Source: an uncultured Spirochaetota bacterium
GTDB taxonomy: Bacteria > Spirochaetota > Spirochaetia > SZUA-6 > Fen-1364
Length of the DNA stretch: 64,000 nt
Assembly: GCA_963845325.1 (NCBI GenBank)
Contig: CAWJRT010000016.1
Location: 39,780 to 103,779 of the forward strand
Reading direction: 5' to 3'
Position 1 is the stretch's first letter. Each line of letters starts with the position of its first letter. Below, piece after piece: positions 1-64,000 of this stretch. The position numbers and the translations under genes are program-made. Below the pieces are notes generated by a model. That model was given only the letters and a program-made list of their open reading frames with translations, did not search any database and had not been told where the DNA came from.

Positions 1-943
1 AGTTCACGCGGCGCTCCCTGGTCGTCGACTTCATCATGGGCATTCTGCCCGTTCCTTCTCCTGTACCCCTTTCGAGCCCTGGGGAACGTGCTGGTGTTCA
101 GAAGATCAAGGCGCGCCTCGGCGGACGGTTCCGCTTCACCGTTTCCGGCGGGCGGCGCTCTCCGCCCTACGTGGACAAGTTCTTCCAGGCGGCCGGCGTG
201 CTCCTCCTGGAAGGCTACGGCCTGACCGAGACCACACCGGTCGTGTCGGTGCGGCTCCAGCACCACCCGGTGCCCGGGACCATCGGGCCGCTGCTCGCCG
301 AGCAGCAGATGAGGCTCCTCGACCCCGAGACGGGCAGCGGAGGTCGGCCCCGGGCAGCAAGGGGGTCATCCACCTCAAGGGTCCGAACGTGATGAAGGGC
401 TACTACAAGCGGCCCGACAAGACCGCGGAAGTGCTCACGCCGGACGGCTGGCTGGACACGGGTGACCTGGGGATGGTGACCTACAAGGGAGAGATCCGCA
501 TCCTCGGCAGGACCAAGGAGACCATCGTGCTCCTGGGCGGGGAGAACGTGGAGCCGGTGCCCATCGAGGACACGATCCTGGAAAGCGAATACATCGACCA
601 GGTGATGGTGGTGGGCCAGGACCAGAAGTTCCTCGCCGCCCTCGTCGTGGCCAACCAGGAGGCCCTGGAGAAGTACGCCGGCGACGCAGGAGATCATCTA
701 CATGAACAAGGAGGACCTGCTGGAGAACCCGCAGATCATCGAGCTCATCTCCGACGAGATCCAGTCACGGGTGTGCGCGAAGCGCGGGTTCCGCGAGTTC
801 GAGCGGGTGTTCCGGTTCAAGCTGCTCCCGAAGCACTTCGAAGCCGGCGTCGAGCTGAGCGCAAAGCAGTCGGTGAAGCGCCACGTCGTCGCACGCGATG
901 TACGCAAAGGAGATCGCGTCACTTGTTCGGGACAACGAAGTAG
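1..943 (+). CDS. Long-chain fatty-acid--CoA ligase (AMP-binding family). The N-terminus lies outside the window and the in-window part is split across three frames by two frameshifts.
   Basis: ORFs 36..392, 389..943 and 702..1073 carry the AMP-binding C-terminal motifs EGYGLTETTPV and DGWLDTGDLG..GEIRILGRTKE and an FadD-like tail. The frame changes at ~390 and ~700. Confidence 0.75.
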   Translation, partial: VHAALPGRRLHHGHSARSFSCTPFEPWGTCWCSEDQGAPRRTVPLHRFRRAALSALRGQVLPGGRRAPPGRLRPDRDHTGRVGAAPAPPGARDHRAAARRAADEAPRPRDGQRRSAPGSKGVIHLKGPNVMKGYYKRPDKTAEVLTPDGWLDTGDLGMVTYKGEIRILGRTKETIVLLGGENVEPVPIEDTILESEYIDQVMVVGQDQKFLAALVVANQEALEKYAGDAGDHLHEQGGPAGEPADHRAHLRRDPVTGVREARVPRVRAGVPVQAAPEALRSRRRAERKAVGEAPRRRTRCTQRRSRHLFGTTK

Positions 944-970
944 GCAGGCCGCCCGCCGGCTCACCGCGCC

Positions 971-6922: not shown

Positions 6923-8283
6923 CTACAGCGATCCGCCGTTGGTGGCGATGACGCGCTGGTACCAGCCGGCGCTCTTCTTCCACGTGCGCGCCTGCGTACG
7001 GTAATCCACGTGCGTGATGCCGAACCGCTTGCTGTATCCCCAGGACCATTCGAAATTGTCCATGAGCGACCAGAGGAAGTAGCCCTCGAGCTTCACCCCG
7101 TGCTGGATGGCGCGCCGAGCCTCGCGGAGGTGGGAGGCGAGGTATTCGATCCTGTCGTCGTCCTGCACTTGTCCCTTTTCGATGCGGCGGTCAGGAAAAG
7201 CAGCACCGTTCTCGGTGATCACGAGGGGCATTCCCGGCCGTTCGTCCCTCAGCCTCATCAGCAGGTCGAACAGGCCCTCCGGATGCACCTCCCAGCCCAT
7301 GTCGGTCAAAGGCTTGTGCTCGACGGCGGCCTGCTGGTAGCCGAGCACACCGCCGGCATCGCTCGCATAGATCCTCTGCGGGAAATAGTAGTTGACGCCG
7401 AGGAAGTCCACGGGATTCGCGGCAAGAAGCGGAAGATCATCCGGGATAAACGCGCGGGGCGATTCCGTGTTTCGTGAATGCGGCCAGCACGTCCGCCGGG
7501 TACGACCCCTTGAGAACGGGATCGAGGAACCACCGATTGGCAAGCCCGTCCGCCCGGTGTGCCGCCTCGACGTCCGACATGCCGTCCGTCCACGGATACA
7601 TGGTGTGCAGGTCGAGGGCGATGCCGATGCGACCGGCCTCAGCGCTGCTCAGCTCGCGGAATGCGCCGACGGCCAGGGCGTGCGCATGGAGCAGCACGTG
7701 CGAGGCCTGCACCGCCGTGCCGAAGTCCTTCAGCCCGGCGCGTGGATTCCCTCCGAATGACCCGAGGAACGCGGCGACCTGGGGCTCGTTGATCGTCATC
7801 CAGGTCTTCACGCGGTCCCCGAGATGGGTGAACAGGCATGCGGCGTAGTCGGCGAACCAGGAGGCGGTGTCGCGGTTGGTCCATCCCCCCGCGTCCTGCA
7901 GCGCCTGCGGCAGGTCCCAGTGGTACAGGGTGAGCGCGGGATGGATCCGGGCTGCCAGCAGCGCGTCGACGAGCGATTCGTAGAAATCCAGTCCCTTGCG
8001 GTTGAGCCTTCCGTGTCCCTCGGGGAACAGGCGGGGCCAGGCGATGGAGAATCGGTAGGACGCGAGGCCCAGATCCCGCATGTTCTCCACGTCGTCCTTC
8101 CACCGGTGATAGTGATCGCAGGCCACGTCGCCCGTGTCTCCCCCGTGGATCGCTCCCGGGCGTCGCGCAGAAGCGGTCCCAGATCGACTCGCCCCTGCCG
8201 TCCTCCTTCACGGCGCCTTCGACCTGGTACGCGGCGGTGGCCGCTCCCCAGAGAAATCCCGGGGGAAATTCGCTCGACGACAT
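6923..8283 (-). CDS. GH1 beta-glucosidase, with two frameshifts.
   Basis: ORFs 7639..8628 (N-terminal [19 protein letters not shown]), 7437..8126 ([19 protein letters not shown]...TINEP) and 6923..7543 (ITENGAA...[15 protein letters not shown]) are consecutive parts of one GH1 enzyme. The frame changes at ~8150 (GGG/CCC run) and ~7440-7540. Confidence 0.85.
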
Positions 8284-8334
8284 TCCTTGCTCCTCGGCCC
8301 AGTATAGAAGGCGGCGGCCGGGGCTGTCAAACTT

Positions 8335-8363: not shown

Positions 8364-8393
8364 TTAGCAACAAAAGAACTTTCCGGAGAAAAC

Positions 8394-10966
<2,573 letters not shown>

Positions 10967-11267
10967 GAAGAAGTAGCAAGCCTCCCCACGGCGGCGGCTG
11001 CCGCCAGAGGAACCTGGAAGACCTTGTGCGGCGAGCTGCCGCCGCTTTTCAGCACGACGCTTTCGCGGGACAGGCCGAGTGCCTGCGCGAGGACCGGATG
11101 ATTTCCTCGTTCGCCTTTCCCTTTTCCGCCGGCGCCCGACGGACACCGAGAGCTCGCCCGGCCCTGACACCCAGGACGCCGTCCGCGCGCGCGTGCGCCC
11201 TGGCCTTCACGCGCAGAAGCAGAGTTGTGTCTTTCACCGCGTAGAAGGCTGCCCGGTTCCATGAGCA

Positions 11268-13527
11268 TCACCTCACCTCGAAGCGCACCCGGTCCCGTCC
11301 GGCGGGACTGGCCGCAATGATCTCGTGGGTCCCCCGGGGCAACGGTACCTGGAGGCCGGAAAGTCCCTGCCCGGGGGAGGCGCGCTTTCCATCGATGACC
11401 ACCTCCACCTCCCGCGCATCCCGAGCCGCAATGGACACGGGAATGCCCTGGGCGCCGCTCCGCAGGGTCTCGTCCCGGTACATGACCTGGTCGTTCACTG
11501 GAAAGAGAATCCGCACCGACTCGCCGCTCGCAAGAAGGCTGTTCAACAGGAGGTCTCCCCGCTGAAAGGGGTTCGCATGCCAGCCGCAGGGAGGCGGAAC
11601 TTCCGCCGCGCTCCTGAAGTACTCCGTGCGCGTCGAGTCACAGGCGGGCGTGGCCCCCAGTCCGGTAACCGTGCAGATCCGGGCGGCCGCGACGCGCGCG
11701 GGAGGCTGGAAGTCGCGCGCGGCCCGCGGCTGCGGATGCTCCTCGGAGAGCCGGGTGAGGATGTCGGAGACGATCTGCGTGGGCACGATGCTGCCCGTCT
11801 TGTTGATCACCGCCCTGCCGTCGAAGTTCCCCGCCCAGGCCCCCACGGTGAAGCGCGGCGTTGCGCCGACGCACCAGAGGTTGGTGAACTCGCTGGAGGT
11901 CCCGGATTTGAACATCGAGGGAATGCCGTCCTGAAATAGGTGCGGGTTCCGAATCCCGTGGCCCGGGCCGAGGGGTCCGAGAGGATGCTGCAGATCATCC
12001 AGGCGGAGAACGGATCGAACACCCTTCGCAGCGCCGGGCGCTGCTCCTTCGGTAAGCGCGAGGTCAGCCAGGGTGCCCCCGCGGGGGAAAACGCTGAATG
12101 CGTGGACGAGCTCCACCAGTGAGACCTCCGCGTTTCCGATCGCAGTGCCCAGGCCGAACCGCGCCGCGGCGTCCGCCGGCAGGGTGAAGCCCAGGTCGCG
12201 AAGGGTTGCCAGGAAGACCGGCAGGCCCAGGCGCGAGGCCGTGTACACGGCGGGCACGTTCAGAGAGCTGGCCAGCGCGGTGCGCAGCCGCACCACGCCG
12301 TGGCTGCGCTTGTCGAAGTTCTCGGGGCTGTAGGATTCCTCGTCGGCCGGCCCGAAAACGACCGGCACGTCCGGCAGAAGCGTTGCGGCGGTCCAGCCCT
12401 TCTCGATTGCGCGCGCGTACAGAAACGGCTTCAGCGTCGAAGCGCTCTGACGGCGGATGAGCGCCCCGTCGATCTGGCCCGAATGAGCCGCGTCGTTGAA
12501 ATCGCGGGAGCCGACCCACCCGATGACCGCCCCCGTTGAATTGTCAATGGCTACCACGGCCGCATTGGTGACGCGCGCTTCAGAATAGCGGGAGAGGATG
12601 AAGCGGACGCGCGCCTCGATGTCGTGGTTGAGCCCGAGGTCCAGCGTCGTGCGAACGACGCCTCCGGATGAGCGCAGGCGCCCCGCCGCGAGCTCGGCCT
12701 GGACGTAGCGGACAAAATGCGGGGCATCGCCCGCGGGACGCGCCCGTGCGCGCGCGCCATTGACCGCCGCCTCGATTTCGCCCGGGCCTATCCCGAGGCG
12801 CTTCCGCTCATCCAGGTCGCGCGCCGCTGCGATGAGCCGCGGTGCATGATCAAAGGGATCATAGACCGTGGGGTTGCGCGGAATGATGGCCAGCACGAGG
12901 AGCTGCGCGCGGGTCAGGTGAGAAAGATCCGTGGCGAAATAGGTCCATGCCGCCGCCCCCGACGCCCAGCGTGTTCCTGCCGAAGGGCACGTGGTCCAGG
13001 TACTCGGTGAGGATCTGGTCTTTTGTCAGCCGGGACTCGATCCGCAGTGCCCACCATGCCTCGACGATCTTTCCGGCCATGCTTCGGGCGCGGGGCTCGA
13101 CCAGCCGGGCAAGCTGCATCGTGATGGTGGAAGCACCTGACCGCGCGCCGGGTGACAGGGCCCTGTCCGCGATGGCGCGCAGCGTTGCCAGCGGGTCGAC
13201 ACCGGGGTGGCGGCGGAACCGGGAATCCTCGAGGGTGACGAACATCTGCGCGCATTCCGCGGGAATTCCCGAGCCTCCCTCGCGGAGCTGGAACGCACCG
13301 CCGGGGCCCGACATGGCGGAAAGAAAGGTCCCCGAGCTGTCCGTGATGCGTGATCCGGAAGGGTCTGCCAGGAAAGCATCGAGCTCCGGCATCGGCATGA
13401 GCAAGAGCACAGCTGTCAGGAGCGCGGGGATGCCGATGAGCAGCAAAGCCCGGATGGCAGCGAGCCGCGCGCCCGGAAGCGCGGGGCCCGGCTTCAGTCC
13501 GGCGTCCGTGCCTTCGAGCGCAGCCAC
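11268..13527 (-). CDS. pbpC: Penicillin-binding protein 1C (transglycosylase + transpeptidase + C-terminal PBP1C domain), with one frameshift at ~12900.
   Basis: ORF 12859..13527 carries the GT51 motifs (FRRHPGVDP...GASTITMQLARL). ORF 11268..12896 carries the transpeptidase motifs (STLKPF, KSGTS) and a BiPBP_C-like tail. Confidence 0.85.
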
Positions 13528-20040: not shown

Positions 20041-21437
20041 GCGAAGTGGGAAGCCCGGGCCTTGCTGGAGCAAAGCGCTACAAGCCGTATCCGGCGTACA
20101 AAGACTCAGGCGTGGAGTGGCTGGGGGAGATACCGGAGCACTGGGAAATGAAGAGGCTGAAAACACGGATCGTCCAATCCGGCAGGTGCACCGCCAGCAA
20201 GGAGAAATTGACTCACTGAAAGGCGAAGTACTTCCGTGCGTATGGCGCAAGGATATGGAGGCACTTGATCTCGATACCAAGGACAAAATAGAGTCAGGAC
20301 AGCTTCGCGACGAGTGCGACCAACCTTGTTTCCGTTGAAGATGATGTTATTGTCGCTAAGATCAGGCATTCTGGTTCATGGCAATCCCGGTTGCAATTGC
20401 GATGGTCTCGAAGTGGGCAGCTGCGAACCATGATCTTGCAGACGTTGATAACGCGAGCACATGGAGCTTGTCCCTGAGTCCTCTTTCTGCTGATCGCATG
20501 AGCGACACGCTGTTCGCTATGGAGAAGGAAGGCGTATGACGTTGCGGGCCTAGAAATGAGTCCAGATTGATTGCAAACACTCGCATGCACCAATACCGCA
20601 GCCACCGGAGCAGCGCGCGATCGTCGCTTTCCTCGATCGAGAGACGGCGAAGATCAGATGCGTTAGTAGCAGCAAACGAAACAGCTGATCGAACTGTTGC
20701 AGGAGAAGCGCGCTCGCCCAAATCACTCAAGCTGTGACCAAGGGTCTCGATCCGGATGCTCCCATGAAGGATTCCGGCGTCGAGTGGCTGGCTGACGATA
20801 CCGGAAAAATGGGAGAGTCAAGCGGTCTTAAGTATCTTTCCACTTTCGTCACCAGCGGCTCGAGAGGATGGGCAGATTACTATTCGGATGATGGCTCAAT
20901 ATTCTTCGCATTGGCAACCTGACAACAGATTCGATAGAAATAGATCTTGCAGACGTCCAGCATGTACACGCTCCTCGCGGCGCCGGAAAACGAAAGAATC
21001 CGCGTCCGAGCGTGTGATATTGTCATTTCCATCACAGCGTTGATAGGAGCAGTTGGTGTGGTGCCCGACGAGCATCGAGGAAGCGTTTCGTGAATCAGCA
21101 TCTGGCACTCGTGCGGCCTGTCACGCGAGCGCGTGAACCCGCGTTGGCTAGGCTATTCCATTCTGTCTGGATTTGGACACGCGCAACTGCACGAGGAGTT
21201 ATATGGCGGAACGAAGGACGGATTCGGACTCGAGGATATCCGAGCACTGACTGATCTTCGTGCCTCCGTCTATCAGTGCAAGAGCAAATTGTCACGAACT
21301 GGACGAAATGAACAGACAACACGACGCTCTTATCGCGGAAGGTCAAAGACGCCATCGAGCGCCTCAAAGAGCTTCGCACCGCCCTCATCTCCGCGGCAGT
21401 CACAGGCAAGATCGACGTGCGGGAGGAGGTTCCATGA
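20036..21437 (+). pseudogene. hsdS: Type I R-M specificity subunit HsdS. It is full length (~1.4 kb) but broken by several frameshifts and in-frame stops in the AT-richer target-recognition domains.
   Basis: TRD1 starts at [23 protein letters not shown] (20036-20219). The central conserved region PPEQRAIVAFLDRETAKI...ELLQEKRA(ALITQAVT)[17 protein letters not shown] is at 20590-20800. The C-terminal conserved LKELRTALISAAVTGKIDVREEV ends at 21437 and overlaps the hsdR ATG. No single frame is open. Confidence 0.6.
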
Positions 21438-24400
21438 GCCCCGAAATCTCCGAGCGCAGCTTCGAAGGGGATATCGAGCGCAGCCTGCTCCGGGCAGGGG
21501 CCTACCGAAGGCATTCCCCAGAAGACTATGACCGCGAGCTCTGTCTCATTCCGGCTGACCTTGTGGATTTCGTGGTGGCAACACAACCGAAGGAGTGGCA
21601 AAAACTCACGCAGCACCACGGCGACAACGTGCGTGAACGCTTTCTCAAGCGCGTCGCGTCTGAGATCGAAAGGCGCGGGGCACTGGATGTGCTTCGAAGC
21701 GGGATCAAGGATTCGGGCTGCAAGTTCAAGCTCGCCTACTTCCCGCCCGCAAGCGGGCTCAATGATGAGATCCGGCGACTTCATGCGGCGAACCTGTTTG
21801 CCGTTGCGCGGCAGGTTCGCTACAGCATCAAGAATGAGAACAGCCTGGACCTTGTGCTGTTTTTGAATGGTATCCCTCTTTTTACGGCGGAGCTGAAAAG
21901 CCCGCTTACGGGCCAGACTGTCGAGGAAGCAATTCGACAGTACAAGACCGATCGCGACACTCGGGAACCGCTCTTTGCCTATGGAAGGTGTCTCGCGCAT
22001 TTCGCCATCGATCCCGACCTGGTATACGTCGCCACGGAGCTCGCGGGAGAGAAGACGCGCTTCCTTCCCTTCAACAAGGGAAAGTTCGGTGGTGCAGGCA
22101 ATCCACCGGTATCTCCAACGCAGGAGGGATACTCAACGAGCTATCTCTGGGAGGACACGTGGTCCCGCGACAGTGTCCTCGACCTGGTGCGTCAGTTCGT
22201 CCATGAGGTGGAAGAAGAAGACGAGAAAGGTCGAAAGACCGGCAGGCGCTTCACGATCTTCCCTCGCTATCAGCAGCTCGATTGCGTGCGAAGGCTCGTC
22301 GCGCATGCGCGTGAAGCAGGCCCAGGGCACCGCTACCTGATCCAGCATTCGGCAGGAAGCGGCAAGAGCTTCACTATCGCTTGGCTTGCTCATCGGTTGG
22401 CCACCCTTCACGATTCCTCGGATCGGAGGGTTTTCGACTCAATCGTGGTCGTTACCGATCGACGCGTTCTCGATCGGCAGCTCCAGACGACAATGCGACA
22501 GTTCGAGCAGACCCTTGGCGTAGTGGAAAACATCGACACGACTTCACGCCAGCTCAAGGACGCCCTTGAAGGTGGAAAGACGATCATTGTTACAACGCTT
22601 CAGAAGTTTCCGGTCATCGTCGATGAGATCGGCGCGCTGCAGGGCAAACGCTTCGCGGTGATCGTCGATGAGGCGCATTCCTCTCAATCGGGAGAAAGCA
22701 CAAAGAGCCTCAAGGCCGTCCTCGCCTCCAAGTCCCTTGAGCAGGCGGAGGCCGAAGAGGCCAGCGCCCAGACGCCAGAAGAGGAGCTTGAAAACGCCGT
22801 CTTGTCAGAAATAGAAAAGCGTGGGCAGCTTCCTAATCTTTCCACTTTCGCGTTTACCGCCACGCCCAAGTCCAAGACGCTCGAGCTCTTCGGGACAAAA
22901 CGCGCGGATGGAAAATTCGAACCTTTCCACCTCTACACCATGCGTCAGGCCATCGAGGAGGGGTTCATCCTCGACGTGCTCGAAAATTACAGCACGTACA
23001 AATCGTACTGGCGACTGCTGAAAAGAATCGAAGCCGACCCGCGCTACGATCGAAAGAAAGCCGAGTACCTGCTCAAATCCTTCGTCGACCTCCATCCGCA
23101 CGCGATCGGGGAGAAAGTACGGATCTGCATGGAACATTTTGCTGCGCAGGCGCAGAATGCAATCGACGGCAAGGCAAAGGCCATGATCGTGACCCGCTCA
23201 CGGCTGCACGCGGTGCGCTTCAAGCTTGCCGCCGACAAGTACATTTCAGAGCACAAACTGCCCTTCAAGGCCCTCGTGGCATTCTCTGGCACCGTCAAGG
23301 ATGGCGGGGAGTCGTACACGGAATCCGGTATGAACGGCTTCCCTGCGGCACAAACGGCCAGGTCTTTCGATCGGCCGGAGTACAGGTTTCTCATAGTGGC
23401 CAACAAGTTTCAGACCGGCTTTGACCAGCCGCTTCTTCTCGCCATGTACGTTGACAAGAAACTCGGGGGCGTCAACGCGGTGCAGACCCTTTCCCGGCTC
23501 AATCGCACGCATTCGGGCAAGAAGGGTACGATAGTCATCGATTTCGCCAATGAAGCCGATCAGATCAAAATAGCCTTCGAACCATATTTCGAGACCACGC
23601 TCCTGTCCGAGGCGACTGATCCGAATCTGCTCTATGAGATTCAAACGCGGCTCGCAGCTTTCCCGGTTTATACGCCTGCCGACATTCACAACTTTGCTAT
23701 CCTCTACTTCAATGCCGCGACGAAACAGGACCGATTGTATTCCGCACTGGCCCCCGCGGTCACTCGCTTCCAGGCGCTATCCCAGGCTGAGCGGGAGGAA
23801 TTCCGCGGGCAGCTGACCGACTATGTGCGGCTCTATGCATTTCTGGCGCAGGTGCTCCCGTTTGCCGATTCGGACCTGGAGAAGTTCTATGCTTTTGCGC
23901 GGTACCTGCGGCGGCTGCTTCCTCCCGATCGCGCCGAGCTTCCGCGGGAGGTGCAGCAGAACATCGACATGGAGTCCTATCGCATCCAACGAACCGGCGG
24001 TGGAAAGATCGCACTGGAGCGGAGGCCAGGCATCCTGGAGCCAGTTGGGACCAAGGACAACCATGGGCCATGGACAGAGGAACTGGAGATGCTTTCGCGT
24101 ATCATTGCGATGCTGAATGAAAGATTCGGGCTCAACCTCGGCCCCGAGCATCGCCTGACCCTGGGTCAGATGATGGAAAAGCTCGACGGTGACGCAGCGC
24201 TTGATGCCGCCGCACGGGTCAACACCCGTGAGAACGTCCGTCTGACGTTCGATCAAAAAGTTGAGCGTGTGATCCAGGAGATCGTCGATTCCAACTTCGA
24301 GCTGTACAAGCGTATCACCGACGACCGCGCTTTTGGAGAAGCAATCAAGAACTTCCTTTTCGATCAGTACCTGCGCGCGCATCGAAACGCGGAAGAGCTA

Positions 24401-24871: not shown

Positions 24872-24930
24872 TCGAGAAGGAGCGGTCGTCTTCCGCCGGC
24901 GTGAGGCGGATCAGGGCGGTATTGGAGTAG
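24863..24930. repeat. Direct repeat DR-R. This is a displaced, degenerate copy of the alaS 3' end (it encodes ...EKERSSSAGVRRIRAVLE*) and it contains the hsdR stop codon.
   Basis: ttcaaataatcgagaaggagcggtcgtcttccgccggcgtgaggcggatcagggcggtattggagtag. The identical core is 24898-24920. It has two extra nt relative to DR-L, so it is not in the alaS frame. Confidence 0.8.
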
Positions 24931-38196: not shown

Positions 38197-38198
38197 CT

Positions 38199-39550: not shown

Positions 39551-39767
39551 GCCATTCTCCTCTTCGGCGCACAGGGTACACCCTCCCCCGCCGCTTTTCA
39601 ATGCATGGCGGCGGCGCAGCCGCGGGAAAGTCGGGCCGGAACGTCCTGCGTCTTGACATCCCGCGAAAAATCGGCTTTCCTTCGCCGCGCGGCAAGCAAC
39701 GGTGCGCCTGCCGGTGCCGAAACTGCCGGAGTGGACTGTTTCACGCCCTGAAAGGAACCCCTGACCA

Positions 39768-40371: not shown

Positions 40372-40390
40372 ACCGGGGCCGATTGACGGC

Positions 40391-42095: not shown

Positions 42096-43066
42096 GCCGC
42101 GGACAGGGCCACTTTTCACGGTGTGAGCCAGCCGGCATTCGAGCAGCCCCGGAGACACCCTGGACGGCGTCGTGGAGAGCATCCTCGGCTCGTACCGCGA
42201 GCTCGGGGGAATCAACCACATCGAGGGAGCCAACCTGCCCTCGCGCCAGAGCATCGAGCGCATCATCGCGAACCTGGAGTCGCTGATTTTCCCGGGGTTC
42301 CAGGCGGAGGAGACGCTCGCCCTCGACGGGATGCGGTACACCATCGGCGAACGGGTCGTGAGCGTGAGCCGGGCACTGGTGCCGGAAGTGGAGAAGAGCA
42401 TCCAGTACGCCTGCCGCGTGCGCAAGGACTGCCAGCGGCACGAAGACTGCCGGGGCGAGGCGGAGGAAATCGTCCGCGCGCTGCTGGAAGGGATTCCGGA
42501 GATCAGGCGCAAGGTCAACCGGGACGTCATGGCCGCTTTCCGGGGAGACCCGGCCGCGCGTTCGCAGGAAGAGGTGATCCTGTCCTACCCCGGCGTGGAG
42601 GCCATCCTCATCCACCGCATTGCCCACGAGCTGTGGATCCGGGACGTGGCAATGATCCCCCGGATGATGAGCGAGCATATCCACGGCGTGACCGGAATCG
42701 ACATCCACCCGGGGGCCGCAGGTCGGGGATTCATTCTTCATCGATCATGGAACAGGGGTCGTCATCGGGGAGACGGCGGTCATTGGAAACAATGTCAAGC
42801 TGTACCAGGGCGTCACGCTGGGGGCGCTCAGCGTGCAGAAAGAGCTTGCCAACAGGAAACGGCACCCCACAATAGAGGACGAGGTGACCATCTACGCGGG
42901 GGCCACGATCCTCGGCGGAAAAACGGTCGTCGGCCGCGGTTCCATCATCGGCGGCAATGTCTGGCTCACCGACAGCGTTCCCCCGAACAGCAGGATCTAT
43001 CACAATCCCAGCCAGGTCCGACAGGCGCGGGCCGATGATCCGGACGCCTGGGACGGGGGACTGTGA
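42096..43066 (+). CDS. cysE: Serine O-acetyltransferase (long form), with a frameshift at ~42730.
   Basis: It has the SATase N-terminal helical domain (…[20 protein letters not shown]) and a hexapeptide-repeat C-terminus ([25 protein letters not shown]). The parts are in ORFs 42087/42172..43038 and 42833..43066. Confidence 0.8.
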
Positions 43067-45569: not shown

Positions 45570-48357
45570 TCAGTGAAACTCTCCCCAGCTCTCGCCGGAC
45601 TCGCAGTGAACCGCCAGGGGGATGGGGTGCTCGGTGACGTGTTCCATGACGTCACGGACAATCCCTTCGACAACCGCCACTTCCTCGATCGGCGCTTCAA
45701 GGATGATTTCGTCATGCACCTGCAGGAGCACGCGCGTGGCAAGCTTCCGCTCCGCCAGCCGTTTGTACAGCTGCACCATTGCCAGCTTGACGATATCTGC
45801 CGCGGTTCCCTGGATGGGTGAGTTGACCGCAACCCTCTGCGCCGCTGTCCTCTCCGTGCGGTTGCTGCTGGTGATGGCTGCCACTCTCCGCCGGCGCCCC
45901 ATCAGTGTGCGGACAAATCCGGTTTCTTCGGCGGACCGGATGGTTTCCTTCAGAAACCTGTCAACGCCCTGGAACCTTTCAAAGTAGGTTTTTATGAATC
46001 GGTCCGCATCGGCGCGGGGGATTCTCAGGCCCTGCGCCAGCCCGAACGAGGACATTCCATAGACAACGCCGAAATTGATGGTCTTCCCCACCCGCCGCTG
46101 ATCCGCGGTGACCTGTTCCTCGGTGACCCCGAAAATCAGGGAGGCGGTCTGCCGGTGCACATCCTTCCCCTGGGCGAACGCATCCAGGAGGATCGGGTCC
46201 TTCGAAAGGTACGCCAGGATGGCAAGCTCGATCTGGGCATAGTCGGCGCTCACGAAGCGCATGCCGGGCGCCGGCACGAAAGCGGAGCGGATGCGCCGCC
46301 CCTCTTCTTCACGGATCGGGATGTTCTGGAGGTTGGGGTCCCTGCTCGCCAGGCGTCCCGTTGCCGCGCCTGTCTGCACGTAGTGCGTGTGAAGCCGTCC
46401 GGTTTCTTCGTTTACCAGCAGCGGCAGTGCGTCGACGTAGGTGGACTTCAGCTTGGAAAGCTTGCGATGGACGAGGATTTTTTCCGGGACGGGATCCTGT
46501 GCGGCAAGGATTTCCAGCACATCCACGTCTGTGGAATAGCCCGTCTTGGTCTTCCGAATGGGGGTCAGCTTGCGCCAGGTGAACAGGATTTCCTGCAGCT
46601 GTTTCGTCGAGTTGATGTTGAAGGGCCGCCCGCACAGCGCATAGATCTCCTGCTCGAGCCCCGCAAGGGATGACTCGAGCTCCCTGCTGTACGCCGAGAG
46701 CTCAGCGGAGAGGATGCGGATACCGGTGAGCTCCATCTCTGCCAGCACGCACAGGAGCGGCATCTCGATGTCGCGGAGCACGCCCGCCAGGTCCTCCGCT
46801 TCCAAATCGCGCGAAAGCAGCGCGTGCATGCGCAGCGTGAGGTCGGCGTCCTCCCCGGAGTAGTCGGTCACCTGCTGGATGGGAAGCTGATCCAGCGTCT
46901 GGTCCTTGCCCACGAGCTCCGCGTACGGCCTGGTGCGGAAACTCAGCCGCTTCTCCGCAAGGCGGTCCAGCCCGTAGGCGCCTTCGTCGCTTTCCAGGAC
47001 CCAGGCGGCAACCATGGTATCGAAGTGCACGTTGGCCGGCCTGACTCCCCAGCGCCGCATCACCTTGTAGTCGTACTTTGCATTCTGGCTGACAAGGCGC
47101 AGGGACGGGTCCTCGAGCAGCGCGGACAGCCTTTGCTTGACCGTTTCCTCGGGGATGCAGGTCACCCCGGATGCGTGGACAGGCAAGTAGCAGGCCCTTC
47201 CTTCCTCCATGCTCAGGGAGAACCCGAGAGGGCGGGCCTGCATCTCATCGCTGCGGTCCGTCTCCACGTTGAACGAGTAGAGGCCGGCCCGGCGCGCCCT
47301 GTTCAGCCACAGGTCGAGCTCTGAGACTGACGTGATGGTGGTGTAGGTGCCCGCAGCCGTGCTGTGCAGGATGATGCCGGACGCCTGCTCCGATGGCGCT
47401 GGCCTCCGTCGAGGCGGCCTTCGGGCCTGCCTTCGGTCCGGGATTCCTGGCGTCCGGAGAGTCGGGGGACCCCGAGCTTTTCCGGTGAAGTCCCTTGAGA
47501 TCCGCGGCGAGGGTCTTCATGCCTTCGCGCTCGAACAACGCAACCGCCGTGCGGCTGCCCAGATCCGGCGCGCCCAGGGAATCCACGGCCGGCATTCCCG
47601 GTACCTGCCGATTCAACGTGACGAGCTCACGCGAAAGCATGGCCGCTTCCCGCCCGGATTCCAGCTTTGCGCGCAGGGATGCAGGGGTCACCTCGGAAAG
47701 CTTCCCGTACATCGTGTCCAGGCTGCCGAACTGGGCCAGGAGCTTCTGTGCCGTCTTCCCGCCGATGCCCGGGACGCCGGGGACATTGTCCGACGAGTCG
47801 CCCGTCAGCGCGAGGAAGTCGACGATCTGCTCGGGATATACGCCCTTTGACTCGAACACCTTTTCACGCGAGTACTCCTCGAGGGCGGTGCTGCCGCGCT
47901 CCTGCGAGAGCAGGCGCACGTTGCCGGCGATGAGCTGCAGGATGTCCTTGTCCCCCGAGAGAATCCAGCACGGTGTGCCGGACTTGCGGCAGTCTTCGGC
48001 AATGGTCGCGATCACGTCGTCGGCTTCGAACCCGTCAGCCCTGATGCACGGGACCCGCAGCGCCTCCAGGATCTCCTCGATGACCGGCACCTGTGCGTGG
48101 AGATCCTCGGGGGCTCTCTCCCGCTGGGCCTTGTATTGCTCGTAGCGGAGGTGCCGGAAGGTCGGTACCCGGGAGTCCATGGCCACGAGAATCGATTCCG
48201 GCGCCCTGTCGCGAAGGATCTGGAACAGCGTGCGGAAAAAAACGAATACCGACGAAGAGTTTTTCCCCAGGGGGTTGAGAAGGGGTCGGTTCAGGAATGC
48301 GAAGTACCCGCGATAGATAACGCTGTAGCCGTCGATCAGGTACAGCTCTCGGCTCAT
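45570..48357 (-). CDS. polA: DNA polymerase I, with one frameshift at ~47300.
   Basis: The N-terminal 5'-3' exonuclease is in ORF 47245..49284 (MSRELYLIDGYSVIYRGYFAF...). The 3'-5' exo and polymerase domains are in ORF 45570..47267 (motif A DYSQIELR-like DYAQIELAILA; motif C VHDEIILE). Confidence 0.9.
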
Positions 48358-48800
48358 GTCGTGATGTCGATGAGCCCCGGCGTGACCTCGGCGAAAGGCG
48401 AGGCGGACCGGGGCCACGCCCGCAGGGAGGTGATCTCCCGCCGCATGTCGTCCATGCGCTTGCGCAGCCGCTGGCGGTTCCTGACGTTGTGGGCAAGGAT
48501 CTCGGAGCCCATGGCCTCCAGGGTCGATTTCAGGCGGGGGATCGTTGCCTCCGAGCCGCCGGGGTATGCTGCCTGGTAGAGGGCTTCGAGGGGAGCGATG
48601 ACCTTTTTCACGCTGAAAATTTCGGCGATGATGGCCTGCTCCATCTCCACCTGGGCGAGCAGCTTCTCCGAGTCGCCCTGCTCGATGGACTCCCCTTCGC
48701 ATTCGAGGAGGTGCAGGTACGAGCCGAACTTCTCCCTCTGGCGCGCGAGCATCTCGCGCAGCCTCCTGAGGACGGCGACATTCTGTTCGATGCGGTCCAT
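48354..48800 (-). CDS. FlgN/FliT-like flagellar export chaperone (tentative).
   Basis: A 148-aa helical protein immediately downstream of fliS, with weak resemblance to FlgN. No diagnostic motif. Confidence 0.35.
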   Translation of the reverse strand: MDRIEQNVAVLRRLREMLARQREKFGSYLHLLECEGESIEQGDSEKLLAQVEMEQAIIAEIFSVKKVIAPLEALYQAAYPGGSEATIPRLKSTLEAMGSEILAHNVRNRQRLRKRMDDMRREITSLRAWPRSASPFAEVTPGLIDITT

Positions 48801-55602: not shown

Positions 55603-57095
55603 TCAATCTATTTCAGCCTCCAGCTCTGCCGCGAGCGAATCTGGATAGTGCGCATCGACAAACAATTGAAACTGGCGCGCTGCCTGGGCAACCAGCATCT
55701 GCCGGCCGATATACAACCCTGCAGCCCGCCTCTCAGCCCGGCGCAGAAGCCGGGTCTTCCCGAGGTGAATACACCAGCTCATAAACTGTCTCTGCGCCGC
55801 TGAACGCGAGGCCCGGGGCAGGGTCCACGTCCTCACGGGGGGACATGCCGGCGCTCGTGGTCTGCACGACGAGGTCGGCGTAGTCCTTTCCGCTTTCGAA
55901 TCCCGCCGCGTCCAGTCCCCCGGCGCGAGCGCCGAATGCCTCCGCGAGACTCGCGGGCGTTCTCGACCGTCCTGTTCAGCACGAGCACGCGGGCTCCTGC
56001 GCTGCTGAGGGCGGCGACAACCGAGCGCGCAGCGCCCCCGGCGCCGATGACGGTTGCCCCCAGCCCGGCGGGATTGCGCCGCCGAACATCGCGCGCAGCG
56101 GAGCAAGGAAGCCCTCGCCATCCGTATTGGTCCCGGTCCAGGAGCCGCCCGCCCCCGTGCGAATGAGCGTGTTGCAGGCCCCGACCCGGCCGCACGTGCG
56201 CATCGCCCTGGACCATCGGGCCCAGCACCGCCTGCTTGTGCGGCGACGGTCACGGAAAGCCCCTCACCTGCAGCGCATCGGCGACCTTCCAGAAGCCGTC
56301 GAGGTCCGGAACCTGAGAAACGGAAGATACACGGCGTCGATGCCCAGGGCGCTGAACCCGCGATTGTGGATCAGCGGAGACCGCGAGTGCATCACCGGAT
56401 TGCCAATGACGCCAAAAATCGCCGTGGAGCGGCCGATGGACCTGAATCGATACACATCCTCCAGGCTGACCGGCGTGACCTGCCCGGGCGCCACGGCCCG
56501 GGCCGTGGGTGATGCGTAGCACCATGACGAACCGAGATGCGGGGCGAGAACCCGGGTGGGAAACCCGATGTCGCCCATGCCGAGGAGGACTCTTTCCCGG
56601 TGCGCCGCCGCATGGAACACCTGGAGAAGCTCCGCAAGCTGGGCGCACGTCGTCGGAGTCACGGCGGCCTTCGGAATCTCGTGCGGTCCCCGCGCAAGGG
56701 CGGCAGAACCGGGCGGCAAAGCCCCGGGGGAACGCCGGAGAAGTCATGGAGCGACCTCACGATCCGCGCCCCGCTCCGCCTGATGACTTCCTCCAACGCG
56801 GGGGCCTGCAGGTCCTCCTCGATATCGACGTAGGCGAAGCCCCGGCCGGCGAGCCGCTGCAGAAGCGCCAGGCGGTCCTGCTCCGTCCCGTCGAACTTTC
56901 CCCCGTCCCGCACACGGCGCACGGTGAGAATGACAGGAAGCCCGGCGCGCGCCGGGCAGCCGGCCGGCCGCAGCCAGCTCAGCCTCGAGCAGGTGATCTG
57001 CGCGCAGCTCGACGAGATCCACCCGGCCGCGGAAGGTTTCAAGGCTGCGAAGGTCCGCCTCGAGGGTCTCTGCAAGCGAGGACGAGGCAGATCTT
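55603..57095 (-). CDS. aroDE: Bifunctional 3-dehydroquinate dehydratase (type I) / shikimate dehydrogenase, with at least four frameshifts.
   Basis: AroD motifs (KICLVLA...VDLVELRADHL; LPVILTVR; GFAYVDIE; ARIVRSLHDF) are followed directly by AroE motifs (AIFGVIGNPVMHSRSPLIHN; NTLIRTGAGGSWTGTNTDGEGF; VIGAGGAARSVVAAL). The pieces are scattered over ORFs 56659..57075, 56744..57742, 56264..56719, 55976..56203, 55833..56228 and 55603..56253. Confidence 0.65.
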
Positions 57096-58399: not shown

Positions 58400-60950
58400 C
58401 AGCCCCACTTCACCAGCCCGGGGAGGAACGGATGCACGAGCGCCGGGTGCTTGGGCAGGATGCGCACCGTGAAACCCTGCCGCCCGGTGCGGTCGCAGGT
58501 CACCTCCGCGCAGTACAGGGCCGCCGTTCCCTCTCGTCCCGCAGGGGGTCATCTCCAGCCGCCGCGGCGTGCTCGATTTCTCCCTGTGACGACAGCGGCC
58601 CGTAGTACAGCTCCACGCCCAGCTCTTCCGGTGCGAGGTCGGCCAGGAAGATGCGCGCCTGCACCGAGATCGTGTCTCCGATGGAAAGGATCCTCTCGGA
58701 AGGGGAGGTGATTTCCTCGATCCGCAGCGCATCCCAGCTGTCGCGGAGCTTCGCCAGGTACGCCGGCGGCGTCCCGGCAGAGCGCGCAGCTCTTCGTGCA
58801 TGAGCTTCTGCGCATTCGCCACGGCGGGAGAGTAGAAGGTGCCTGCGTATTCCAGGAGCATGCGGTGGCTGCTGAAGCGCTTCCCGACGTCCCGCATCGA
58901 CTCCTTCATCCTGCGGATCCACTCGCGCGGCAGCCCGTCCATGCCCCTCGCGTAGAACAGGGGGATGATCTCACGCTCCAGGAGGTCGTACAGGGCTTCG
59001 CCCTCCACCTCGTCCTGCAGGGCGTGGTCCTCGTACTCCTCTCCCCTCCCGATGGCCCACCCGATGTGCGTGGAGTACGCCTCGTCCCACCACCCGTCGA
59101 GGATGGAGAGGTTCAGCGTGCCGTTCATCGCCGCCTTCATGCCGCTGGTGCCGCTGGCTTCCAGCGGGCGGCGCGGGCGTGTTCAGCCACAGGTCGCTGC
59201 CCGAGGTCAGGTAGCGCGACATCGTCATGTCGTAGTCTTCGAGGAACACGATCCTGCTGGCCACGCGAGGGTCGCTTGCAAAGTGAACAAGCTTCTTGAT
59301 GATCTCCTTCCCCGCCAGGTCGTGCGGGTGCGCCTTGCCCGGCGAAGATCATCTGGATGGGTCTCTCCTTGTCGGTGAGCAGGCGAATCAGGCGGTCCGG
59401 GTCCGCGAGGAGCAGGTCGGCCCGCTTGTAGGATGCGAACCGGCGGGCAAAGCTGATGGTCAGCGTGTAGGGAGAAAGTGCATCCGCGCCGCGGGCGAGC
59501 TCGGAGTTGGTGACCCCGCGGCGCGCAAGCTGCTGCTGCAGACGCGTGCGGGCGAATGCCACCATCCTCTCGCGCCGCCGCTCGTGCGTGCGCCACAGCT
59601 CCTCGTCGGAAACGCGGTCGATCCTGTCCCAGACGTCAAGGTTCGTCGGCGTGTCGTGGAACTCGGGGCCGAAATACCGGTCCAGGAGGTCGATCATGTC
59701 GTGCGTCACCCACGTCCGCGGGATGTACGCCGTTGGTGATGTGCGAGATCGGGATCTCGTCAATCGGCAGCGACGGCCAGATCCTGTGCCACATCGCGCG
59801 GGAGACAACGCCGTGCAGCCGGCTCACCGCGTTGTTGAACGCGGACATGCGCAGCGCCAGCACGGTGAGGCAGAAATCCTCCCCGTCGTTGTTCGGGTCC
59901 TCGCGCCCGAGGGCCAGGAACTCTTTCCACTGACAGCCCCAGCTCGCGCGCCGCTCCGCCGAAGTACTTCTCCATGAGAGCCGGGCGCAAAGCGTTCGTT
60001 TCCCGCCGGCACCGGCGTGTGCGTGGTGAACACGTTCGTGGACCACACGCACTGCCACGCCTCGGCGAATGTCAGCTTGTTCTTCGAGCATCAGCTCGCG
60101 GATGCGCTCCAGGCCGAGGAAAGCGGAGTGGCCCTCGTTCATGTGCATGCAGGCCGCCGGGATCCCCAGCGCGCGCAGCGCCCGGATTCCGCCGATCCCG
60201 AGGAGGATTTCCTGCTGGATGCGGATCTCGCGGTCTCCCCCGTACAGGGAGGCGGTGATGAGCCGCAGCGGCTCGGGATTTGCCTCGATGTTCGTATCCA
60301 GCAGGTACAGGGAGTTCCTGCCGACCGCCACCCTCCAGATCCACGCAGTCACGCTTGCCGTCCCCAGTTCCACGTGCACGGTCACGGGCGCTCCCTGTGC
60401 ATCGCGGCAGAGGGTGACGGGCATGTTGTACCAGTCGTTCTCCGGGTAGGACTCCTGCTGGAAGCCGTCCACGTTCAGGTACTGCTGGAAGTACCCCTGG
60501 CGGTAGAGCAGGCCGACGCCCACCAGCGGCAGGCCCAGGTCCGACGAGGTCTTCATGTGGTCGCCGGACAGCATCCCGAGCCCGCCCGAATAGACCGGCA
60601 GGGCAACGTCCAGCCCGTACTCCATGGAGAAGTACGCAATCGCCGCATCCGCAGGGCCCTTGTACCAGCGTTCCGCGCCAAGGTAGCGCTGGAACTTGGC
60701 CCAGACGGCGGCCAGCGCGGCAAGGAAGGAATCATCGCGCGCGGCCTGTTCGAGCTTCTCCTGCGCCACCATTCCCAGCATCCGCACCGGGTTCTGCCGC
60801 GAGGCCAGCCACGCGTCGTAGTCCAGCCGCATGAAGAGCATGATCGCCTCGTAGTTCCAGCTGATCCAGATGTTGTGGGCGAGCTCATCGAGCGTCTTCA
60901 GGGGGGCGGGAATGTTCGGTTTGATCGTGAAGGCAAGGGATGCCCATGGA
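58352..60950 (-). CDS. glgP: Alpha-glucan phosphorylase (GlgP-type, TIGR02094-like), with multiple frameshifts. The start is approximate.
   Basis: The N-terminal region FTIKPNIPAPLKTLDELAHNIWISWN is in ORF 59636..61033. The middle region is in ORF 59137..59808. The C-terminal region KAAMNGTLNLSILDGWWDEAY...GWAIG is in ORF 58352..59140. Confidence 0.7.
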
Positions 60951-61016: not shown

Positions 61017-62450
61017 CCGATGGGAATCTTCAAGTCCTACGACATCCGCGGCGTCTTCAACCGGGAATGGAACGGGGCCACCGCGCGCGCCATCGGCAGG
61101 CACCTCCCCGGACCTGCTGGAGGCCCGGACGGATTGCCGTCGGACGGGACGTGCGCCTTTCATCGGAGGAGGTGTTCACGCGAGCTCACCCGCGGCATCA
61201 CCGAGGCGGGCTGCGACGTCGCGGACATCGGGCTATGCGACACGCCCGGCGGTCTATTTCGCAACCGCCCACTACGGCCTGGACGGGAGCGTGATGATCA
61301 CCGCGTCCCACAACCCTCCGGAGTACAATGGGCTGAAGGTATCGCGGCGAATGGCCGTCCCTGTGGGTTACGACACTGGCCTTGCGGAGCTGGAGCGCAC
61401 GGTTGCTGACGGCGTTCCCGTGTCCCCACCGGCGCGGCCCGGCAGCGTCAGCACCCTGGATATCAGGGCTGACTACCTGGCTCACCTGGCAAAGTTCACG
61501 TCCGACCTCATCCCGCCTGAAAGCGGTCATCGACTGCTCCAACGGGATGGCGGGACTTTTCCTGCGGGACGTGCTGAAGAATACCGGCCTGCGCTACTCG
61601 CTGATGTTCGACGAGCCCGACGGGCAGGTTTCCCAACCATGCCCCCAACCCGCTTGTGGAAGAGAACCTCGCGCAGCTGAAAAAACGCGTGAAGGAGGAA
61701 AGCGCAGACCTGGGGATCTGTTTCGACGGGGACGCCGACCGCGTGATGTTCGTGGACGAAACCGGCGCGTTCATCTCGCCGGACCTGCTCATCGGTTTCC
61801 TGGGCACCTACTATTTCACGCTCCATCCCGAACGGCGCGCCGGATCGAGCAGGGTCATGACATACGACGTGCGCTCATCCCGCGGCGTCGTGGAGTTCCT
61901 GGAGGGGCTCGGCGCGGAGCCGACCATCTGCAAGGTGGGACATTCGTTTGCGAAAAAGCTCCTGCGGGACACGGACGGGATCGCCGGAGGCGAGCTCGCC
62001 GGGACACTACTATTTCCGGGAGAACTTCTTCTGCGACTCGGGAATGATCGCGGCCCTGATCATCATGGAGGTCCTGGCGGCGGACGGCAGGCCCTTCTCC
62101 CGCGCAGTCGCCGAGATCGGCCGCTATCATTTTTCCGGCGAGATGAACTTCACGGTGCCAAACGGCCCGGCGATCCTGCAGCGCGTGAAATCGGACTACC
62201 CCGACGGGCGCGCTCACCGACCTGGACGGAATACGGATCGACTTTCCCGACTGGTGGTTCAACCTGCGCGTCTCCAACACCGAGCCCCTCCTTCGGCTGG
62301 TCGTGGAGGCCAGGACGAAAGAGGGGCTCGAGGAAAAGAAAGCCGAGCTGGTGGAGAAAGATCCGGCGCTACGTCCGTGTAGCCGGAAGCCGCCGCGGCG
62401 CACTGCTTCTGCACTACTCCGGAGGGATCACCAGCTGCCAGCCCGGGTAG
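61017..62450 (+). CDS. Phosphoglucomutase/phosphomannomutase-family protein, with multiple frameshifts. The 3' end is approximate.
   Basis: It starts MGIFKSYDIRGVF. It has the active-site TASHNPPEYNG(LK) at 61294-61340 and the Mg-binding FDGDADR at ~61720. The parts are in ORFs 60963..61409, 61291..61680 and 61656..62450. Confidence 0.75.
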
Positions 62451-64000
62451 ATCAGGTCCGGGTTCTGGATCAGCTTGCGGTTCCTCCGCCAGATATTGGG
62501 CCACTTGTACGGGTCCCCGTAGATGTCCTTGTACTCGGCGATCCGCCAGAGGCAGTCACGCCGATCCGGGATCAGGCGAACGGTGTAGACGCCCTTCACG
62601 GCATATGACTTGTAGATGTCGATGTACCGCTGCGCCTCGTTGAAGTAGTCCAGCGCCTTGCCGTAGTTGCCCGCCTGCTTTTCCTTCAAGCCCTGCGACC
62701 ACAGGTCACGCGCCTGCTGCAGAAGGCTCACGGTGCTCGTCATCCGCCATGACGACGGTGCTCTGGTCCGTCGGAATGGCCATGGACTGGCCGACCGGGG
62801 TCTGCTTCTTCTGCTCCTCCTGCATCATGCGGTCTATTTCCTTGAGGAAATCCTCGTCCTTCCAGTTCTGCGGCTTGACCACGGTGCCGTCTTCCGTGAC
62901 GACCGTGAGGCTGGAGGCATCCACCAGGGCCTTCATGACCTGCTCCTGCATGGCCTCGGCCTTCTTCTTCTGCGCCGCCTGGGAGCCGTCCCGCGCTTCT
63001 CGGGCGATGCGGATGGTGTCCTTTGCCGCCTCGCGGGCCGCCCCGAAGTTCTCCTCCGCGTCGTCCAGCTTGTAGCCTTGGAGCGAATCCACGCCCGCAG
63101 GTACAGTGAGGTCACCTTGTCCTTCTGTTCCGGCGCGTACTGTACAGCTCTTCCGATTCCGCCTGCTTCATGAGCTGCTCGGTCTCATACTTCACGGACT
63201 TCACCGCGGCCAGGCGCGATTCCAGCCGGTTGCCGAGATCCGTCATTTCCTTCAGCGCCTGGTAGGCGCGCGCGCGGGCGCCGGAGTAGTCCTTGTTCTC
63301 GCAGAGAGCAGCCGACTCATCGATGCCCGCCGTGGCCTTCTGGAAGTCGTCGGGAAGGAACTTGTCCGCTTCGAGGGCGAGCAGCCTGTTGCGCGCGGCT
63401 TCGAGGTTCGCGGCCATGACCGCTGCCGACTTCTCCACGGAGTTCGTGAACGCAAGGTCCGCCTTGTCCTTGGAGTCAGACAGCTTCTGGCGCGCCGCTG
63501 CGGGATCGCTCGTCCTCAGGCTGACCCCTTCATCCAGCAGCTGCCGCGCAGAGTCGTAGTTGTCCGGATCGAAGTAGTCCGCGTCCACCTCCCTGGCCCG
63601 GGCCAGCGCGTTGCGCGCGGCATCGATTTCCGCGTCTGTGACCGGAGGTACCTCTGCCTTGATGGTAAACTCCGCGCTTGCCACCGCGGAGTTCGTCATT
63701 GACTGCTTTACACCCACGGCCATGATGGTCTGCGACGTTGTGATGGAGATCGGCCCGGTATACAGGACTCCGCTTGCCGGATCCGGCTGGCTTCCATCCG
63801 TGGTGTAGTAGATCTGCGCGCCCTCGGTGGCGGTAGTCAGGGTGACGGTGGCGGAACGGTCGTACGCGCCGCCGGAGGGTCGAATTGCACCGCCGCGACT
63901 ACGCCGCTGATGGTGAACGTCGCGCTCACAACGGGAGAGTCGGTCCAGCCTGTCTTTGCCGCAATGGCCCGGATGGTCGTCGTGGCTGACACCTGGATGG
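62414..64000 (-). CDS. Large secreted protein (partial, it continues beyond the window end) with CHB_HEX_C-like Ig repeats, a central coiled-coil/helical region and a C-terminal LysM domain. There are two or more frameshifts.
   Basis: ORF 62414..62743 ends with a LysM-like motif (DCLWRIAEYKDIYGDPYKWPNIWRRN...IYPGWQLVIP). ORFs 62706..63092 and 63112..63723 are helical and Lys/Glu/Ala-rich. Upstream of that, the frame-corrected sequence reads IYYTTDGSQPDPASGVLYTGPISITTSQTIMAVGVKQSMTNSAVASAEFTIKA, which is chitobiase/hexosaminidase C-terminal-like. Confidence 0.5.

Follow-up and report, generated by a model that had tools for sequence, protein, structure and literature searches.

Pervasive frameshifts in a 64-kb Spirochaetota metagenome sequence most likely reflect assembly consensus errors

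Frame disruption across the genes of the window

We analysed the reading frames of the protein-coding genes in a 64-kb stretch of DNA from an uncultured Spirochaetota bacterium (GenBank assembly GCA_963845325.1, contig CAWJRT010000016.1, positions 39,780 to 103,779; hereafter the window). About 30 genes, or about half of the roughly 55 in the window, are broken by frameshifts, among them clpB, polA, pgm, a glgP-like alpha-glucan phosphorylase gene and a bifunctional aroD-aroE gene (aroDE). The G+C content of the window is about 65%, with 56-60% at 16-29 kb, and no tRNA genes were found in the 64 kb. Among GTDB species representatives, the closest ClpB proteins came from Spirochaetota metagenome-assembled genomes (Treponema, Spirochaetaceae and Spirochaetales; about 80% amino acid identity), and the flagellar chaperone genes in the window agree with this placement. 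A 40-mer of the window had no match in the GTDB representatives or in the JGI metagenomes. Protein searches identified relatives on long contigs of three ENA assemblies, all of which carry Flye-style 'contig_N' names: loci L001 and L084 on ERZ25039477:contig_10153, L002 on ERZ25039466:contig_89195, and L083 and L085 on contig_60185 and contig_21339, respectively, of ERZ25039537. All of these loci share synteny with the window, their nucleotide identity to it being 75-87%.

Frameshifts were mapped by complementary approaches. In a reference-free step, a codon-usage model trained on the long open reading frames (ORFs) of the window was combined with Viterbi segmentation, in which frame switches were penalised. 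In a profile step, single-frame translated pieces were scanned against full-length NCBIfam models. In addition, intact orthologues on the related contigs served as references for a frameshift-aware protein-to-DNA aligner, which was written because plain tblastn passes through wrong frames, high-GC frames being stop-poor; plain tblastn was dropped as a shift mapper for this reason. The polarity of indels was assigned by parsimony in three-way MAFFT alignments of the window and two relatives. Some events in the L085 alignments (in polA, a deacetylase gene and a GT4 glycosyltransferase gene) were left out of the tally as errors of the reference contig, since at these places the ORF of the window is unbroken and the path of the alignment runs through stops. 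The region at 29-34 kb lacks a close reference, and events there were probably under-counted.

Combining the aligner, the three-way alignments and the events seen only by Viterbi segmentation yielded about 113 frame-disrupting events in 64 kb, or about 1.8 per kb. These comprise 66 one-base and four two-base insertions, 18 one-base and two two-base deletions, and 23 events that were seen solely as net switches and have no type assigned. Among the typed events, insertions thus outnumber deletions 70 to 20 (3.5:1). The codon-usage segmentation recorded 61 net frame switches within genes once true gene boundaries had been removed, and joined pieces in different frames into plausible full-length proteins. 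Pieces of the broken genes match successive, non-overlapping profile intervals in alternating frames, showing that the genes are complete apart from the shifts, and this consecutive tiling goes far beyond chance and demonstrates that the frameshifts are truly in the sequence. The original prediction, made from the letters of the window alone, that frameshifts are pervasive was therefore borne out by the Viterbi switches, the profile tiling and the aligned events.

The ORF listing breaks clpB (8391..10973, plus strand) into a number of ORFs that overlap and differ in frame. A three-way alignment of its DNA with that of L001 and L002 placed all eight events. Each of the eight is an insertion, together adding nine bases: single bases at 8793, 8811, ~9077, ~10074, 10218, 10369 and 10901, and two bases (GC) at ~9744. 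The clpB pieces match TIGR03346 (length 853) at 1-128, 136-224, 225-444, 448-553, 555-603, 604-651 and 652-831. The clpB locus of one relative is itself unusual, in that L002 (7.8 kb) is partly palindromic: a clpB segment occurs twice, inverted, within L002 1-4000, and window positions 8673-10337 match both L002 1650-1 and L002 1647-4199. As far as its sequence allows a judgement, this palindrome looks like a fold-back chimeric long-read artefact.

A similar picture emerged for the glgP-like phosphorylase gene (58405..60938, minus strand), with eight net switches and at least ten window-private 1-nt insertions. Three-way comparison with L083 and L084 showed insertions only and zero deletions, in agreement with the frameshift-aware alignment, and the pieces tile both TIGR02094 and NF041129 (length 816; 2-282, 285-314, 333-396, 400-520, 521-578, 579-700 and 709-763). 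The pgm gene (phosphoglucomutase/phosphomannomutase; 61020..62373, plus strand) aligned to the intact 451-amino-acid L083 orthologue at 83% amino acid identity, with nine one-base insertions and no stops; its pieces match NF007088 (length 456) at 84-167, 215-329, 332-397 and 403-449, and a 2-nt insertion lies just upstream, at 60991. At 61107, in a Leu codon of pgm, both the window (CCT[C]CCCGG, inserted base in brackets) and L084 on contig_10153 (CCT[G]CCCGG) have an extra base compared with intact L083. This was the sole coincident insertion site seen between the window and a relative, and it may be due to chance or to a local error hot spot. For aroDE (55630..57093, minus strand), alignment to the intact 506-amino-acid L084 orthologue (56% amino acid identity) gave about ten frame-disrupting events and met one in-frame stop codon, with TIGR01093, TIGR00507 and NF006802 pieces lying in different frames. 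Comparing these counts with those originally predicted showed that the earlier values hold for polA, cysE, dinB, bgl, pbpC and fadD and were too low elsewhere, with about six events given for clpB, at least four for aroDE, and one to three each for glgP and pgm.

Clustering of the events is strong: the index of dispersion in 2-kb bins is 3.8, and adjacent genes have anything between 0 and 9 events per kb. Event-free intervals were defined by long intact ORFs lacking Viterbi switches and evaluated by Poisson probability at the mean rate of the window. The longest, 21315-29921 (8.6 kb), covers hsdR, a TPR protein gene, hisB and an AAA ATPase gene at 21431..29900 (P = 2.5e-7), and a second, 14450-20139, covers alaS, hsdM and an abiE pair (P = 4.3e-5). 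Together with 42718-47390, 3532-7446 and 48955-52606, the five intervals have P values of 2.5e-7 to 1e-3. GC content was considered as a driver of event density and rejected: the Spearman rho was only 0.44, hsdS (GC 0.556) is the dirtiest gene while bshC/bshB (0.65-0.66) and 42.7-47.4 kb (0.65) are clean, and one clean stretch of the window has a dirty counterpart in a relative.

Private lesions and constraint in the broken genes

Three-way alignments assigned the window 26 private insertions and five private deletions of non-3n length. The corresponding numbers were 39 and nine for contig_10153 (L001 and L084), two and ten for contig_60185 (L083), and two and two for L002. Within the glgP-pgm block, 17 insertions and no deletions were private to the window. 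Homologous sites on the related contigs do not carry the lesions of the window, and the relatives hold other private sets instead. Accordingly, bgl and pbpC are intact in L001; pgm, DUF554, the aminotransferase gene, prs and the epimerase gene in L083; aroDE in L084; and PGA_cap, cysE and fliS in L085. Conversely, alaS, prs and the aminotransferase gene are broken in contig_10153, whereas alaS and prs are intact in the window and the aminotransferase gene has one shift; polA and coaE are broken in L085. The clpB and glgP genes are fragmented in contig_10153, contig_60185, contig_21339 and contig_89195 as well, at differing sites. Across 50263-53973 (3.7 kb), the window has no private insertion and one deletion, whereas its counterpart on contig_10153 has 14 private indels. 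The contrast between the two assemblies over this stretch indicates that the placement of errors is a property of the assembly and not of the sequence.

These comparisons bear on the possibility of genuine genome decay, under which clpB, polA, pgm and aroDE would be true pseudogenes of a host-restricted or otherwise degenerating lineage. Disruption of about half of the genes, and of clpB and glgP in related contigs too, would suit such a lineage, and the window is like the genomes of Mycobacterium leprae and Sodalis glossinidius, which are pseudogene-rich and recently host-restricted, in that a large share of genes is interrupted, housekeeping genes included. Genomes of this kind accumulate nonsense, frameshift, deletion and insertion sequence (IS) lesions; deletions prevail, selection is relaxed, and members of a lineage have lesions in common. 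The window is unlike them, as none of this mixed spectrum, deletion bias, relaxed selection or sharing was seen. Lesions are unshared, each assembly having private sites; 7,595 codons aligned to relatives contained 66 frameshifts and one in-frame stop (the one in the 56%-identity aroDE alignment); and neither large deletions nor IS elements were seen in the window. Natural bacterial indel spectra and pseudogene decay are deletion-biased, against the 3.5:1 excess of insertions observed here.

Selective constraint gave a consistent result. The ratio of nonsynonymous to synonymous changes (pN/pS) was 0.19 for pgm, 0.20 for the C-terminal part of glgP and 0.22 for PGA_cap, all heavily broken, and 0.11, 0.12, 0.26 and 0.26 for the clean genes prs, deacetylase, bshB and epimerase, respectively. 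Broken genes therefore lie in the same range as clean ones, with the limit that pS is near saturation and a very recent relaxation would escape this measure. In addition, the composition is high-GC and free-living-like, the biosynthetic gene set is full, and genes with up to 9-12 events lie beside an untouched 8.6 kb. Decay does not leave genes with eight to ten frameshifts that lack stops and keep normal constraint while 8.6 kb beside them is free of lesions, and we regard it as very unlikely.

Programmed recoding, in which ribosomal frameshifting, transcriptional slippage or quadruplet decoding would resolve the +1 shifts in vivo, would account for the predominance of net +1 events. Known cases of slippage and programmed frameshifting, such as the poly(A) tracts of insect endosymbionts, prfB and dnaX, depend on long homopolymers or conserved slippery motifs, and these occupy conserved positions. 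The window shares with them single-base frame breaks in genes that must function. In contrast to those cases, its sites have no common motif and none is conserved in orthologues, which excludes programmed recoding; deletions and 2-nt insertions occur too, the runs resulting from insertion are mostly 1-3 nt long, no motif survives correction (see below), and neighbouring genes differ widely in event density (0 to 9 per kb). We accordingly attach practically no weight to recoding. It is likewise exceedingly improbable that the extra bases are real in a broader sense, as pervasive lineage-private +1 frameshifts in the housekeeping genes of this spirochaete lineage and its relatives that are either tolerated by recoding or the mark of very fast, insertion-biased decay.

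Comparison of the window with its relatives instead makes it highly probable that the indels are assembly consensus errors and that the genes of the organism are, most likely, intact. This agrees with the original prediction of uncorrected consensus error rather than pseudogenes, which the private lesions, the intact relatives, the single stop per 66 shifts, the pN/pS values and the 70:20 ratio uphold. Its further proposal, that the contig consists of unpolished long-read data, may also be right; the sister assemblies have Flye-style contig names, and one of their contigs has a palindrome of the kind typical of long-read chimeras. The frame disruption is not a biological feature. Frameshift-truncated proteins are a typical symptom of consensus indel errors (PMC13087279, PMC9262707), and the window resembles long-read (meta)genomes with such errors, as known from IDEEL-type tests, short-read polishing and proovframe, in that adjacent ORFs in different frames encode an otherwise conserved protein, each assembly has lesions of its own, and the rate is within the range for a poorly supported nanopore consensus (PMC9262707, PMC13087279, bioRxiv 10.1101/2021.08.23.457338). 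The indel rate here is about 177 per 100 kb. For a well-covered R10.4 mock assembled with metaFlye, the published figure is about 4 per 100 kb (PMC13087279), and a near-finished consensus is reached only from about 40x coverage (PMC9262707), so that the rate in the window fits low or uneven read support.

Several points weigh against this interpretation. Error was deduced from sequence comparison and not from reads, depth or platform data, and only similar behaviour ties the window to the ERZ2503xxxx assemblies. Each close relative that could be compared comes from an assembly prone to errors of its own, and the searches turned up no high-accuracy genome from the same species, ClpB fragments matching GTDB entries at no more than 82% amino acid identity. 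Moreover, the switches in hsdS alternate between +1 and -1, unlike the insertion excess elsewhere in the window.

Sequence context of the inserted bases

The sequence context was examined for 24 window-private 1-nt insertions that three-way alignment placed exactly. Nine of them lengthen a run of the same base, compared to 12.7 +/- 2.4 under random placement, and the resulting run is 2-3 nt long in eight of these nine; the other 15 create no run. The inserted base was G or C in 21 of the 24 (88%), and 13 insertions created a CpG where 6.8 were expected (P = 0.006). The longest runs of the window (G9, T8 and A7) lie away from shifts. Private deletions behaved differently, three of five shortening a short run. 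The insertions (e.g., 58526, 58569, 58771, 10369 and 10901) often follow triplet repeats of GGC/GCC type, as in GGCGGC[G] and GCCGCC[G], and those in contig_10153 have a similar CG-rich context.

These data do not bear out the earlier claim that shifts fall at G/C homopolymer runs. Of the two examples given for it, the one in the ClpB segment GYVGYEEGG is a real +G at 10369 (GTC[G]GGC), compatible with GG becoming GGG. For the other, a 199-amino-acid lipoprotein, the frameshift is real and its repair restores the signal peptide (MKIARV..LAAC); the site, placed at a CCC run at 39779, was wrong, as the L085 alignment puts the extra base at GT[C]G, 39786-39787, about 7 nt from that run. Homopolymer-length miscalls of nanopore or other long reads, leaving G/C runs one base too long or too short, would nevertheless be a familiar source, since indels in runs are the main residual nanopore error in the literature (PMC9262707), and GG to GGG changes at 10218, 10369, 61624 and 62001, a CC to CCC change at 59338, and the run-shortening deletions are of this type. 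The deficit of run-extending insertions, the 15 singletons, the shortness of the runs, the clean G9, T8 and A7 runs, and the finding that errors at a shared context occur in one assembly and are absent from another render miscalled runs an improbable source of most events. The window is thus unlike usual long-read errors in several respects: it has mostly insertions and not homopolymer deletions, it shows no homopolymer enrichment, its inserted G or C stands beside a different third-codon base, and its events form strong blocks.

No k-mer or motif near the sites survived multiple-testing correction (136 to 512 k-mers). A methylation-type motif was considered and rejected, as the best candidate in the window was CCGG (8/25 sites, raw p = 0.0017), the top one in contig_10153 was a different k-mer, CGCG, and correction leaves neither of them significant.

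Codon phase was assessed with Viterbi frames on the window and contig_10153, giving 41 usable insertions. In 35 of them the insertion adjoins a third codon position (P = 0.006 against a null of 2/3). The inserted base is the same as the adjoining third-position base in only one of these 35 (null 0.33, P = 1.5e-5), and the two form a C/G pair in 22 (null 0.31, P = 1e-4). These patterns suggest a consensus that keeps both strain alleles of a single-nucleotide polymorphism (SNP), typically C and G at a third codon position, so that a 1-nt insertion results; error density would then follow local microdiversity. The excess of G/C and CpG among the 24 placed insertions is in line with such SNP doublets, and many insertions resemble the second allele of a third position (CTC[G], GTC[G], CC[C]G and CT[G]C). 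Contig_10153 carries the same signature. Doublets would also account for the block-wise distribution and for the extreme density in hypervariable hsdS, the remainder of the strain-specific restriction-modification (RM) island being clean.

Other observations count against doublets. By hand calculation, the third-position adjacency reaches only P ~0.09 under a composition-aware null of ~0.75; the synonymous share of C/G pairs, about 77%, lies between the expectations of the two models; the clean core genes beside the island (alaS and hisB) are not obviously explained; a published description of such an artefact was not found in the literature; and a context-specific insertion error in CG-rich sequence would look similar. 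We therefore view SNP doublets as a tentative candidate, somewhat less probable than even.

Taken together, the window belongs to a metagenome contig of 277,804 bp that comes from a Spirochaetota member of high GC content and is recorded at both NCBI and ENA; two database proteins on it are 100% identical to ORFs of the window. Its consensus is ridden with indels, most of which would be spurious single G or C insertions. Such errors probably arise when a noisy long-read assembly of modest or uneven depth is turned into a consensus or polished, and dirty and clean blocks of 2-9 kb may reflect local read support or local strain mixture and not sequence context. Many insertions could be unresolved polymorphism spelled as two bases, for example CTC/CTG rendered as CTCG, which is suggested and not established. 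The value of these results lies in a warning for annotation and a small methodological lead. Gene calls, gene counts, pseudogene calls and domain architectures from this contig are unreliable unless frameshift-aware methods or polishing are applied; clpB, for instance, would be annotated as at least four ORFs. The same probably holds for the 278-kb parent contig and the sister assemblies. On the methodological side, the errors are not of the expected homopolymer type, and if doublets prove true, collapsed strain mixtures could be flagged cheaply by their frameshift density, and a simple repair rule would suggest itself.

The restriction-modification island and other genes

The densest stretch of the window is the type I RM gene hsdS (20061..21434, plus strand), whose 1.37 kb hold at least 12 frame switches. 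A codon-usage Viterbi model trained on the island showed these switches toggling between two frames about every 100 nt, and HsdS motifs are scattered over the frames between abiE and hsdR. A chain of eight pieces representing the second half of the protein (287 amino acids) aligned over 97% of its length, in one high-scoring segment pair, to an annotated 'restriction endonuclease subunit S' (46.5% identity, E = 6e-52; tblastn against annotated plasmids). Single hsdS pieces gave no match to Pfam, nor did the chained protein to Pfam and PDB. hsdS is the most error-dense gene of the window and not demonstrably a pseudogene, and the original caution about hsdS and aroDE as apparent pseudogenes was right, both being simply the most error-dense genes. 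The toggling may stem from mis-mapped reads, or from target-recognition domains subject to strain or phase variation.

The genes that flank hsdS, namely hsdM, abiE and hsdR, contain zero errors. Together with hsdS, hsdM and hsdR lie in an island of lower GC content (0.56-0.60) at 16300-25010, in which a pair of AbiEi/AbiEii-like genes sits between hsdM and hsdS. The whole RM island is missing from the syntenic region of contig_10153, where window positions 16276 and 25012 correspond to L001 19178 and 19252.

Several further genes are broken by fewer events. The GH1 beta-glucosidase gene bgl (6926..8284, minus strand) has net shifts at ~8167 and ~7446 and a compensating insertion/deletion pair at 7767/7731, i.e., two net shifts and four events in all by alignment to the intact 451-amino-acid L001 orthologue; its pieces match TIGR03356 (length 427) at 9-38, 40-264 and 277-427. 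In pbpC (PBP1C; 11271..13488, minus strand), alignment to the intact 739-amino-acid L001 orthologue revealed one net shift at ~12943-12961 and up to four events, including a compensating pair at ~12027/~11916 and a possible event near the N-terminus, with pieces at 9-144 and 149-583 of TIGR02073. A single frameshift at ~47390 separates the 5'-3' exonuclease domain of polA (45573..48360, minus strand) from the remainder, so that TIGR00593 1-291 and NF004397 293-889 are matched in two frames. The DNA polymerase IV gene dinB (35970..37211, plus strand) carries two insertions, at ~36477 and ~36598; its NCBIfam pieces cover 8-168 and ~211 to the end, and its L085 orthologue is 87% identical in amino acids. 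For the cysE-like serine O-acetyltransferase gene (42172..43064, plus strand), we found one insertion at ~42718, pieces at 2-68 and 69-156 of TIGR01172, and an intact, 95% identical orthologue in L085. The C-terminal part of an AMP-binding (fadD-like) enzyme gene (3..925, plus strand) has three net switches and up to six events, as counted from the Viterbi pass and alignment to the L001 orthologue (83% amino acid identity).

Four broken genes lie in a row at 37424..41467, encoding an RMD1-like protein (six events), PEGA-domain proteins (three), the 199-amino-acid lipoprotein (39768-40369; four, including the one at GT[C]G) and PGA_cap (seven). Frameshift-aware alignment to their L085 orthologues gave 79-83% amino acid identity and no in-frame stops. 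A CHB-domain protein gene has four events, fliS, the epimerase gene and the aminotransferase gene have one each, and the Viterbi pass gave two putative switches for the STAND NTPase gene.

An apparent 721-amino-acid ORF at 51809-53974 (plus strand) proved to be an artefact joining an NAD-dependent epimerase gene and a separate ribose-phosphate pyrophosphokinase gene (prs), as seen from the Viterbi pass and from alignment to separate L083 orthologues of 311 and 412 amino acids. The epimerase gene has one deletion at ~52606-52615, past which the wrong frame stays open through the real epimerase stop, and prs is clean and starts at ~52736. This false fusion shows that open frames in high-GC DNA conceal frameshifts.

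Genes of bacillithiol type are also present in the window. bshC and a gene for a bshB-like PIG-L deacetylase are adjacent (4432-6767), with the Pfam Rossmann-like_BshC domain found in the L001 orthologue of bshC, and a bshA-like GT4 glycosyltransferase gene adjoins cysE (42172-44235). Lastly, alaS (14391-16283) is an intact ORF of only ~600-630 amino acids, fewer than is usual for AlaRS in bacteria; short forms of this enzyme occur in spirochaetes. Its orthologue in contig_10153 is fragmented, with a call of 204 amino acids.

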